Sequence record: MT446412.1
Strand: one strand, 5' to 3'
Length of the DNA: 64,000 nucleotides
Origin: Escherichia virus TH41
The notes beneath the pieces are model-generated. The model was given only the letters and a program-made list of their open reading frames with translations, searched no databases and had not been told where the DNA came from. A program made the translations under genes and the position numbers. Of this stretch, positions 37,237-54,613 are shown piece by piece; the stretch's first letter is position 1; each line of letters begins with the position of its first letter.

Positions 37237-37312
37237 GGCCCTGTAGCTCAATTGGTTAGAGCATCCGGCTCATAACTGGCAGGTTTCCGGTTCAAGTCCG
37301 GATGGGGCCACC
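37237..37312 (+). tRNA. tRNA with CAT anticodon (Met or Ile2-type)
   Basis: Hand-folded cloverleaf: 7-bp acceptor stem (two G-U pairs), D-arm GCTC/GAGC, anticodon loop CTCATAA, T-loop TTCAAGT, discriminator A. Confidence 0.75.
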
Positions 37313-37389
37313 CGGGGTGTAGCTCAATTGTATAGAGCAACGGTCTTCTAAACCGTAGGTTGTGGGTTAGAATCCCACCACCCCGACCA
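37313..37389 (+). tRNA. tRNA-Arg (anticodon TCT)
   Basis: Hand-folded cloverleaf: perfect 7-bp acceptor stem, anticodon stem ACGGT/ACCGT with loop CTTCTAA, T-arm GTGGG-TTAGAAT-CCCAC, encoded CCA. Confidence 0.85.
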
Positions 37390-49217: not shown

Positions 49218-49246
49218 GTTTACTTTATGATGGGATAGTGTATAAT
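49218..49246 (+). promoter_or_regulatory. Early promoter / stem-loop cassette
   Basis: GTTTAC, 17-bp spacer, TATAAT; gggatag...tatccca inverted repeat; conserved leader. Confidence 0.45.
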
Positions 49247-52081: not shown

Positions 52082-52624
52082 ATGAAAAAAGTAATCGCCA
52101 CCTTACTATTGACAGTTAGTATGTCTGCCCATAGCGTAGAGCCTACTTTCAGTAATGAACAAATGGAAAACCTCCAATATGCTTATGCGTTTGGAGAACA
52201 GTTCCAGAAAAATGGTAAGTACAAAGAAAATCCGCACCAACATAATGGTTTGGGATATATCATGGCTGGTTTAACCTGGCAGGAGAGTTCTGCTGGGATT
52301 AATACTGGATTAAATAAAGATAAGCATCATGCATATGGTATATTCCAAAATTATCTTCCAACCGTGCGCGAACGTGTGAAACAGGTTGGGTGGACAATGA
52401 CAGATAAAGAAATAATCAAGATGATAAGCAAGAGAGAGAACAGTGCACGCTGGGCTTACATTGAGCTTTCATACTGGTTGAATATTCATAAGGGGGATAT
52501 AAGGAAAACACTATCATCATATAACGCAGGATGGAATGTGAAAGCTGGTAATACGTATGCTTCACAGGTCCTAGAAAAAGCTAACTACTTAAAATCACGA
52601 GGCCTATTAAAAACGGTGGATTAA
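52082..52624 (+). CDS. Secreted lytic-transglycosylase-like protein (180 aa)
   Basis: Signal-peptide-like N-terminus MKKVIATLLLTVSMSAHS; SLT-family-like motifs WQESS, AYGIFQ, SYNAGWN. Confidence 0.55.
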   Translation: MKKVIATLLLTVSMSAHSVEPTFSNEQMENLQYAYAFGEQFQKNGKYKENPHQHNGLGYIMAGLTWQESSAGINTGLNKDKHHAYGIFQNYLPTVRERVKQVGWTMTDKEIIKMISKRENSARWAYIELSYWLNIHKGDIRKTLSSYNAGWNVKAGNTYASQVLEKANYLKSRGLLKTVD

Positions 52625-52626
52625 AA

Positions 52627-52986
52627 ATGGTAAGAGTTATAACTTTAGCCATAGGGTTAGTATTCAGCATGGGAGGAATAGCTTCAGTACAGAGCGACGA
52701 CAACAACAGCATCATAGAATATGCAACGAGGACGGCTAAAGATTATTGCGCCGCAAGCAATGTGGATTGTATAATCCAGTTCAGCGCCAAGCTCACCGCG
52801 GCATATAAAGATGGTCAAAATGATGTTGAACATACACTTTTGAAAAAGAATGTATTATCCAACAAATATGAAAAGAAATTATTTGAAATGGATTGCATTC
52901 TGTCAAGTGCAAAATATAAGGCGGCCTGCACCAGTATGGTTGACAGGTTAGTGGATTCATATAATAGAGGATTGAACTCTAAATGA
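52627..52986 (+). CDS. Secreted / periplasmic hypothetical protein (119 aa)
   Basis: Signal-peptide-like N-terminus; four Cys in mature part. Confidence 0.45.
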   Translation: MVRVITLAIGLVFSMGGIASVQSDDNNSIIEYATRTAKDYCAASNVDCIIQFSAKLTAAYKDGQNDVEHTLLKKNVLSNKYEKKLFEMDCILSSAKYKAACTSMVDRLVDSYNRGLNSK

Positions 52987-53462
52987 TTACCCAGTATATT
53001 AAGGGCGATATCGTCGCCCTCTTTCTTCAAGGCAATATTATTGCACATGGTTGTAACTGCTTTCACACAATGGGTTCTGGTGTAGCTGGACAGTTGGCGA
53101 AGGCTTATCCAAAAGTTTTAGAAATAGATAAAACCACTACTGAATATGGTTCTCGTGATAAATTAGGCGATATGTCTATTGTTTTTAAACATAAGCCGAC
53201 AGGTTTTGGCATGTGCTATAACTTGTATACACAATACGAGCCAGGCCCTAATCTTGATTATGGCGCTTTAGTAAATTGTATGATAGAATTAAATCTACAA
53301 GCAGAAACCCTTTTGTTTAAACCGGTAATTTATATTCCACGTATTGGTTGTGGTATTGCAGGTGGAGATTGGGAAAAGGTTTCTAAATTAATCGACATGT
53401 TTACTCCTGATATTGATTTAATAGTGGTGGATTATGAAAGCACATTACCCACATCCGTTTGA
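52983..53462 (+). CDS. Macro-domain-like protein (159 aa)
   Basis: GDIVALFLQGNIIAHGCNCFHTMGSGVAGQL and IPRIGCGIAGGDW resemble the two conserved macro-domain glycine-rich motifs. Confidence 0.5.
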   Translation: MITQYIKGDIVALFLQGNIIAHGCNCFHTMGSGVAGQLAKAYPKVLEIDKTTTEYGSRDKLGDMSIVFKHKPTGFGMCYNLYTQYEPGPNLDYGALVNCMIELNLQAETLLFKPVIYIPRIGCGIAGGDWEKVSKLIDMFTPDIDLIVVDYESTLPTSV

Positions 53463-53646
53463 CCCTAAAAACAAAGCGGAAATTATTCGACGCTGGACCG
53501 AAACTCGAGTAACCAAATGTCCTATAAAAAGTCAACACAACACTGATAAATGGTATATCGGTGAATATGTTGAATATACTTTTATAGATAAAAATAAACG
53601 TAAACAGCACGTAGAAGAATATTGCCTAAAGGTACAATGGTTATGA
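53434..53646 (+). CDS. Hypothetical protein (70 aa)
   Basis: ORF overlapping the 3' end of the upstream gene; weakly supported. Confidence 0.35.
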   Translation: MKAHYPHPFDPKNKAEIIRRWTETRVTKCPIKSQHNTDKWYIGEYVEYTFIDKNKRKQHVEEYCLKVQWL

Positions 53647-53849
53647 GCCAAGCCCGAATTCTTAAAACGGCCAAATGTGAAAAATGTGAATGGCCGGTAA
53701 TCGCAGCTTTGTGCAACGATGAAATGAATTGCGAATACGATTACTGGTGGTACTGTTCTAATAAAGGATGTTCTAATCATAAGGGTGAAGGTTTTCATTC
53801 TGGTTATTGCGAACATCCTAAATTTGTGCGATATGGGGAACCGAAATGA
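53643..53849 (+). CDS. Cys-rich putative zinc-binding small protein (68 aa)
   Basis: CEKCEW...C..E.NC...C..KGC...C arrangement of eight Cys; ATGA overlap. Confidence 0.45.
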   Translation: MSQARILKTAKCEKCEWPVIAALCNDEMNCEYDYWWYCSNKGCSNHKGEGFHSGYCEHPKFVRYGEPK

Positions 53850-54040: not shown

Positions 54041-54613
54041 ATGGCGAGTTTAATTTATCATTACGCAGCAATGAATGCAGGCAAAACAGCTTCATTGCTG
54101 ACTGCAGCTTATTCCTATAAAGAGCGTGGAATGAGTGTGCTTTTGCTAAAACCTGTTATTGATAATCGGGACTCGGAAGGCGAAATTAAATCACGCATCG
54201 GTATTAGCCAGGAAGCAAACCTGGTAACGGCCGACATGAACCTGTTTGAATTCTATAAATGGGCCGAGTCTCAAAAGGATATCCATTGTGTCCTGGTCGA
54301 TGAAGCTCAATTTTTGTTACCAGAGCAAATTGACCAGTTAGCTCAAGTGGTTGATAATTACAATATCCCCGTTATGTGTTACGGGTTAAGAACAGATTTT
54401 CGGGGTCAATTATTTCCCGGTTCGGCCAGACTTCTGGCTATTTCGGATAAACTGGTTGAATTAAAGGGCGTCTGTCATTGCGGCCGGAAAGCAACCATGA
54501 CCGCTCGAGTAATCGACGGTGCTGCTGTAAAGGACGGCGAGCAAGTATTGGTCGGTGGGAATGAATCGTACGTATCTTTGTGCAGAAAACATTGGCTCGA
54601 ATTAACAAGCTGA
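54041..54613 (+). CDS. tk: Thymidine kinase
   Basis: P-loop AAMNAGKT, VDEAQF, C-terminal zinc-ribbon Cys pairs (CHCGRKAT...C). Confidence 0.9.
   Translation: MASLIYHYAAMNAGKTASLLTAAYSYKERGMSVLLLKPVIDNRDSEGEIKSRIGISQEANLVTADMNLFEFYKWAESQKDIHCVLVDEAQFLLPEQIDQLAQVVDNYNIPVMCYGLRTDFRGQLFPGSARLLAISDKLVELKGVCHCGRKATMTARVIDGAAVKDGEQVLVGGNESYVSLCRKHWLELTS

Follow-up and report, generated by a model that had tools for sequence, protein, structure and literature searches.

What a stand-alone macrodomain does in a T4-like phage, and whether its presence there is new, are the questions raised by a reading frame on the plus strand (52983..53462) of the stretch of Escherichia virus TH41 analyzed here (64,000 nucleotides of MT446412.1, hereafter the window). 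The frame is intact from its ATG to its TGA and encodes a protein of 159 amino acids, which a first-pass annotation made from the letters of the DNA had described as macro-domain-like. The answer turns on three points: the identity of the gene, the residues that it retains and lacks at the active site, and the published behavior of its counterpart in T4.

Predicted fold and ligand-binding motifs

Both glycine-rich signatures on which the description as a macro-domain-like protein was founded are present in the frame and stand in the order given: residues 7–37 read KGDIVALFLQGNIIAHGCNCFHTMGSGVAGQ and residues 119–130 read PRIGCGIAGGDW. [quoted passage not shown] The AlphaFold2 model, for which an alignment of 52 sequences was used, reaches a mean pLDDT of 93.4 and a pTM of 0.88, and in Foldseek comparisons against the PDB it retrieves TARG1, BT1257, Poa1p and the DarG macrodomains with a probability of 1.00; the TM scores of 0.66–0.83 across these proteins and nsp3 Mac1 point to a predicted three-layer alpha/beta/alpha macro fold. 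Structure prediction, which the annotation had named as a check on itself, returned a macro fold rather than none, and the reading of the product as a macrodomain protein is fully supported by the profile matches, the matches to PDB sequences and the modeled fold. Asn25 and the two glycine-rich loops are the predicted ADP-ribose-binding motifs. When a profile of the family was compared with all six-frame ORF pieces of the window, this frame was the sole match, and a second macrodomain gene was not found among them.

Among the proteins of known structure, the best structural match is human TARG1/OARD1 (PDB 4j5r, E = 2e-10), while the best sequence match is Bacteroides BT1257 (2afc/2fg1, profile E = 1e-18), which has a glutamine in the motif NMIGQ and a loop, PRIGCGLAGG, of the type seen in the phage protein; BT1257 is itself without known function. 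The matches to Poa1p raise the alternative of a hydrolase acting on small molecules, i.e., a Poa1p-like ADP-ribose-1''-phosphate phosphatase or an O-acetyl-ADP-ribose deacetylase that clears NAD-derived metabolites during infection. Poa1p is recovered by fold (Foldseek E = 8e-9) as well as by sequence, the protein matches PHROG 335 (E = 8.7e-71), which bears the label 'phosphatase', some sources label relatives 'O-acetyl-ADP-ribose deacetylase', and TARG1 also deacylates O-acyl-ADP-ribose. However, the 'phosphatase' label stems from the old A1pp domain name and not from an assay, the sequence match to Poa1p falls mainly in the N-terminal half (mostly residues 4–78), no T4 pathway leading to Appr-1''-p is known to us, and a specific phenotype, concerning DarTG2, is on record for the T4 ortholog (see below). 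We regard a small-molecule hydrolase as decidedly unlikely.

Orthology with T4 tk.4

The 2.7 kb around the gene share 98.0–98.5% identity with Shigella phage SP18 and with Escherichia phages P479, P896 and 212, which belong to Gaprivervirus (Straboviridae, Tevenvirinae), and the window is that of a T4-like phage of this genus. In SP18 the corresponding protein, gp113, is annotated as 'tk.4' and is 98.7% identical to the product of the window ORF, and its gene is preceded by regB, vs.1 and vs and followed by tk.3, a small ORF, tk.2 and tk. The gene order regB–vs.1–vs–tk.4–tk.3–tk.2–tk is common to T4, SP18 and the window. Here the synteny is anchored upstream by vs, the valyl-tRNA synthetase modifier (52627..52986, +; sharing 99% identity with SP18 vs and 44% with the T4 locus), and downstream by tk.3 (53434..53646, +; 100% and 71%, respectively), with the thymidine kinase gene tk (54041..54613, +; again 100% and 71%) lying beyond it.

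T4 Tk.4, a protein of 155 amino acids, aligns with the window protein over residues 1–155, i.e., 97% of the length, at 56% identity and with E = 1e-60. The two belong to the same PHROG, share the invariant motifs H-G-x-N, Y-T-Q and P-x-I-G-x-G, and have genes that both follow vs and precede tk.3, with tk farther downstream. The first-pass annotation was not aware of a macro domain at this position in T4 itself, but tk.4 is found there, and its T4 annotation reads 'contains A1pp phosphatase motif'. As T4 itself has a macrodomain gene at the same position, the main premise of novelty falls. Nolan et al. (2006; PMC1524935) list tk.4 among the conserved T4-like ORFs (five T4-like genomes and T4) and report matches of its orthologs to the A1pp (macro) domain, with a full alignment in four of six and a partial one in another of the six. 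The window ORF is an ortholog of tk.4, an already known gene that is annotated in near-identical genomes and has also been named adfM.

The window allele is of the SP18/JS98 type. It differs from that of T4 in the phosphate-binding loop (PRIGCGIAGGDW here, PRIGAGIGKGNW in T4), in a C-terminus that is four residues longer, and in the extent to which its 3' end overlaps the start of tk.3 in a different frame, 29 nucleotides (53434–53462) as against 4 in the T4 counterpart; the last three residues have a pLDDT below 50 in the AlphaFold2 model. Unusual divergence from T4, such as would be the signature of an arms race, was considered and rejected: with regB at 57%, vs.1 at 65% and tk.2 at 49% identity to T4, the 56% of tk.4 falls within the 44–71% spanned by its neighbors.

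A glutamine in place of the catalytic lysine

Comparison of the tk.4 family profile with M. tuberculosis DarG and TARG1 by hhalign (probabilities of 97.7% and 98.4%, respectively), together with MAFFT alignment, places Gln84 (codon CAA, 53232..53234, +) of the motif N-L-Y-T-Q exactly on the catalytic lysines, Lys80 of DarG (F-P-T-K) and Lys84 of TARG1 (L-I-T-K), and places Ala126 where TARG1 has Asp125; the DarG query was checked and is 100% identical to PDB 5m3i. Thus, the family is without the catalytic residues of both DarG and TARG1. The remainder of the site can be followed through the same alignments. The loop-1 motif H22-G23-C24-N25 (53046..53057, +) aligns with His24-Val25-Cys26-Asn27 of SCO6735, and its Asn25 is the equivalent of Asn22 of DarG. 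The first glycine-rich loop, G31-S-G-V-A-G36 (53073..53090, +), contains the invariant Gly33, and the second, phosphate-binding loop, P119-RIGCGIAGGD-W130 (53337..53372, +), is nearly identical to those of SCO6735 and BT1257 (PRIGCGLAGGTW and PRIGCGLAGGKW, respectively, against PRIGCGIAGGDW). Across 117 cluster representatives, which reach down to about 38% identity, position 84 is a glutamine in every case; His22, Gly23, Asn25 and Trp130 are likewise invariant, and Gly122 and Gly124 are each retained in 116. This conservation of His22, Gly23, Asn25, Gln84, Gly122, Gly124 and Trp130 argues for a conserved, not a decayed, active site.

The DarG of DarTG2 (M. tuberculosis and Thermus aquaticus; PDB 5m3i and 5m31) is of the same fold class as the tk.4 product (Foldseek TM 0.73–0.77), and the two presumably share a substrate, but identity is only 19–23% and glutamine replaces the catalytic Lys80. 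DarG is also the best NCBIfam match and the only PADLOC match for tk.4, with the macrodomain part of the models being covered: NF048014 is matched over positions 3–141 of 338 at 28.5 bits, far below the equivalog cut-off of 250, and the PADLOC model is matched over positions 4–144 of 329. No darT toxin gene lies beside tk.4 in the window, its immediate neighbors being vs and tk.3. Two direct identifications were considered and rejected—that of tk.4 as a DarG antitoxin, on account of the score below cut-off and the absence of Lys80, of a C-terminal domain and of an adjacent darT, and that of a TARG1/OARD1-type hydrolase, on account of the replacement of the Lys84/Asp125 dyad by Gln84 and Ala126.

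A parallel is offered by SCO6735 (PDB 5e3b) of Streptomyces coelicolor, which is a stand-alone macrodomain like the tk.4 product and unlike the two-domain DarG, and which has a glutamine, Gln85, at the position of the DarG/TARG1 lysine. In the alignment, for which its sequence was taken from an alignment printout, His24, Val25, Asn27, Gln85, Gly126 and Gly128 of SCO6735 fall on His22, Gly23, Asn25, Gln84, Gly122 and Gly124 of the phage protein, so that all but Val25 have identical residues. The two are 26% identical overall, and SCO6735 differs in having a longer mobile loop and in being bacterial and chromosomal. To our knowledge, S. coelicolor has no cognate DarT. SCO6735 cleaves ADP-ribose from thymidine in DNA and gives protection against DarT; its Q85A and Q85E forms are inactive, N27S is nearly inactive and G128E is impaired, while Lys34 and Lys89 position the DNA backbone (PMC9411070). 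The glutamine at the position of the catalytic lysine, common to SCO6735 and the tk.4 family, makes an SCO6735-like mechanism likely, rather than a DarG-like one. Of the features that define the SCO6735 type, the phage protein has the glutamine, the loop-1 asparagine, the histidine and the glycine of the phosphate-binding loop and lacks the pair of DNA-positioning lysines: Lys34 is replaced by Ser32 (mostly alanine in the family, and also the position of DarG Lys29), and Lys89 aligns with Glu86/Gly88. Other basic residues of the tk.4 protein could substitute for them. By its aligned residues, the tk.4 lineage is of the glutamine (SCO6735) type, as against the lysine type of DarG and the AdfM of PhiKZ, a point that is only mildly new.

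The absence of the DarG/TARG1 lysine also speaks for a protein that acts without hydrolysis, neutralizing DarT2 through attachment to the toxin itself or to the DNA that it has modified, or else sequestering ADP-ribose-derived immune signals. The dead Q85A form of SCO6735 still strongly inhibits DarT in vitro, by binding (PMC9411070), and protection by the tk.4 product could therefore be partly non-catalytic; furthermore, the phage proteins AdfA and AdfB are reported or proposed to interact directly with DarT. Set against this are the invariance in the tk.4 family of the equivalents of the SCO6735 catalysis residues His24, Asn27, Gln85 and Gly128 (the last in 116 of 117 representatives) and the lack of the C-terminal DarT-binding domain, the DarG model being matched only over the part stated above. 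The binding of signals is without support. A wholly non-catalytic blocker or binder is, in our estimation, distinctly improbable.

Probable counter-defense against DarTG2

The T4 ortholog offers an indication of what the protein acts upon. In a 2025 preprint (bioRxiv 10.1101/2025.11.20.689424), T4 tk.4 gives the single significant HIDEN-SEQ depletion on a host expressing DarTG2, a clean tk.4 knockout renders T4 sensitive to DarTG2, the protein is noted to resemble the macrodomain of M. tuberculosis DarG, and the gene is renamed adfM (anti-DarT factor Macrodomain). Its authors call the enzymatic removal of ADP-ribose from DNA by Tk.4 'likely', the published evidence for T4 being genetic, and do not take up the active-site residues or the missing catalytic lysine. 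Since the family has the glutamine of SCO6735 and not the catalytic lysine of DarG, a claim that Tk.4 works like DarG requires a biochemical test. T4 lacking both adfA and adfN keeps its resistance to DarTG2, adfN being gene 30.3, which encodes a NADAR specific for the guanosine adducts of DarT1 (PMC11825919). The persistence of resistance in that double mutant implies a further factor, with which the tk.4 result fits. The first-pass annotation had offered three roles for the protein, of which the reversal of ADP-ribosylation-based defenses is the one backed, for the T4 ortholog, by the knockout; the degradation of ADP-ribose-derived signals and the control of phage-encoded ADP-ribosyltransferases (Alt, ModA and ModB) found no support here.

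We consider it fairly probable that the tk.4 protein is an orphan antitoxin-like eraser that reverses the thymidine ADP-ribosylation made by DarT2, as an ALC1-like macrodomain using glutamine/water chemistry of the SCO6735 type. In such a scheme, the product would be made before or during DNA replication, alongside those of vs, regB and tk; the DarT2 of the host would ADP-ribosylate thymidines of the single-stranded phage DNA and thereby block replication; and the tk.4 protein would bind the ADP-ribose and cleave the thymine–ribose bond, restoring normal DNA. Following the scheme for SCO6735, Gln84, held by Asn25, would position the distal ribose, and water would attack; the chemistry is probably not the lysine-based one of DarG and TARG1. 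The analysis shows the ORF and its macro fold, that the gene is orthologous to and syntenic with T4 tk.4, and which residues the family conserves; the same target and catalytic activity may be expected of the window ortholog by analogy with T4. Weighing against an eraser are the identity of only 56% between the window allele and T4 Tk.4, the lack of conservation of the DNA-positioning Lys34 and Lys89 at the aligned positions, and a spread of the family in phages that is wider than a single defense system might explain.

The name AdfM has been given independently to gp104 of PhiKZ, which is DarG-like, with Asn23 and Lys78, and removes T-ADPr from oligonucleotides (Morgan et al., Cell Rep 2026, PMC13309987). 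Like Tk.4, gp104 is a stand-alone phage macrodomain that counters DarTG2, but it belongs to a separate lysine-type lineage, that of the chimalliviruses, and is imported into the phage nucleus and expressed late. Two unrelated phage macrodomain lineages are now both called AdfM—T4 Tk.4 with its glutamine and PhiKZ gp104 with its lysine—and neither was recovered here by the search for the other. As a discovery the window locus amounts to little, in that SP18 gp113 is annotated, the A1pp/macro assignment dates from the 2000s and the DarTG2 role of the T4 ortholog is published; its use is as an example, correctly read, of an orphan enzyme of antitoxin-like kind in a phage.

Distribution and range of possible targets

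Relatives of Tk.4 were found by tblastn in 2,756 of 50,697 phage records. These include T-even and other Straboviridae and, as far as record names and genome sizes indicate, rV5-like, FelixO1-like and Pakpunavirus-like phages, together with KVP40 and Acinetobacter and Aeromonas phages. The DarG-like lysine type, for which the T. aquaticus DarG macrodomain served as the tblastn query and as a proxy for the PhiKZ AdfM lineage, was found in 291 phage records, mostly of jumbo phages, along with some 77-kb Escherichia phage records. At the one locus of a bacterial Tk.4 relative that was examined (Pelagimonas, P0094), no DarT was found nearby, and the gene is an orphan among unrelated genes.

The breadth of the family in phages is among the points in favor of an eraser of other ADP-ribosylations, on RNA or on protein, including marks that other toxins of the host or the phage enzymes Alt, ModA and ModB have placed. 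T4-like phages encode ADP-ribosyltransferases, and proteins are also among the substrates of the ALC1-like TARG1 and SCO6735. However, the products of Alt, ModA and ModB are arginine-linked ADP-ribose, and we know of no macrodomain that removes ADP-ribose in this linkage. In the passage that describes the T4 screens, tk.4 is named in no context other than DarTG2 (10.1101/2025.11.20.689424). CmdTAC, an mRNA ADP-ribosyltransferase system, is reported to be a robust defense against T-even phages (PMC11618068); as T4-like phages carry tk.4, Tk.4 is not an obvious counter to CmdTAC. An eraser dedicated to these other marks is highly improbable. Each of the rivals—small-molecule hydrolase, non-catalytic binder and eraser of other marks—has less support than the reversal of DarT2 modification.

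A broader reading extends from that reversal: the Tk.4-type proteins might be mechanistically distinct, glutamine-based erasers of ADP-ribose from nucleic acids that are far commoner in virulent phages than the DarG-like ones and have a range that possibly reaches beyond DarT2. We hold this to be a speculative and rather unlikely proposition. Were it so, the range could include other base- or RNA-linked ADP-ribosylations or the non-catalytic blocking of toxins, and the set of toxins covered by the divergent SP18-type allele might differ from that of the T4 allele.

Expression and local context

The description of tk.4 as an early phage gene agrees with its position and orientation in the prereplicative cluster, while the promoter scans provided no direct confirmation. 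A scan for sigma-70 promoters gave 12 sites against 13.2 expected from shuffled sequence, with no excess; a simple regular-expression search returned no MotA-box middle promoters; and the only early-like site, at 49219, is far upstream of tk.4. Its prereplicative expression can reasonably be inferred from the strand, the clustering with regB, vs and tk, and the overlaps between stop and start codons. A Shine-Dalgarno-like GAGGA (52967..52971, +) can be read 11 nucleotides 5' of the ATG, which shares an ATGA (52983–52986, +) with the stop codon of vs, an arrangement that may couple the translation of tk.4 to that of vs.

Several further features of the region can be recorded. At 53002–53020 (+), 20 nucleotides inside the tk.4 coding sequence and over the codons for GDIVAL, AGGGCGATATCGTCGCCCT and the T-rich run after it resemble a terminator hairpin, which is probably a by-product of the coding sequence. 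Directly 5' of vs lies vs.1 (52082–52624, +), encoding a 180-aa protein with, by eye, a signal-like hydrophobic N-terminal segment; annotations of its relatives name an SLT lytic transglycosylase domain. Between tk.3 and tk.2 is a small cysteine-rich ORF (53643–53849, +; listed as an ORF from 53622) with the pattern CEKCEW...CNDEMNC...CSNKGC...C, possibly encoding a zinc-ribbon protein. It corresponds to SP18_gp111 and JS98_gp102, and tblastn found no counterpart at the T4 locus. The T4 tRNA cluster is larger than two genes, and in the window only two tRNA genes are present, Met(CAT) and Arg(TCT), which lie back to back at 37237–37389 (+).
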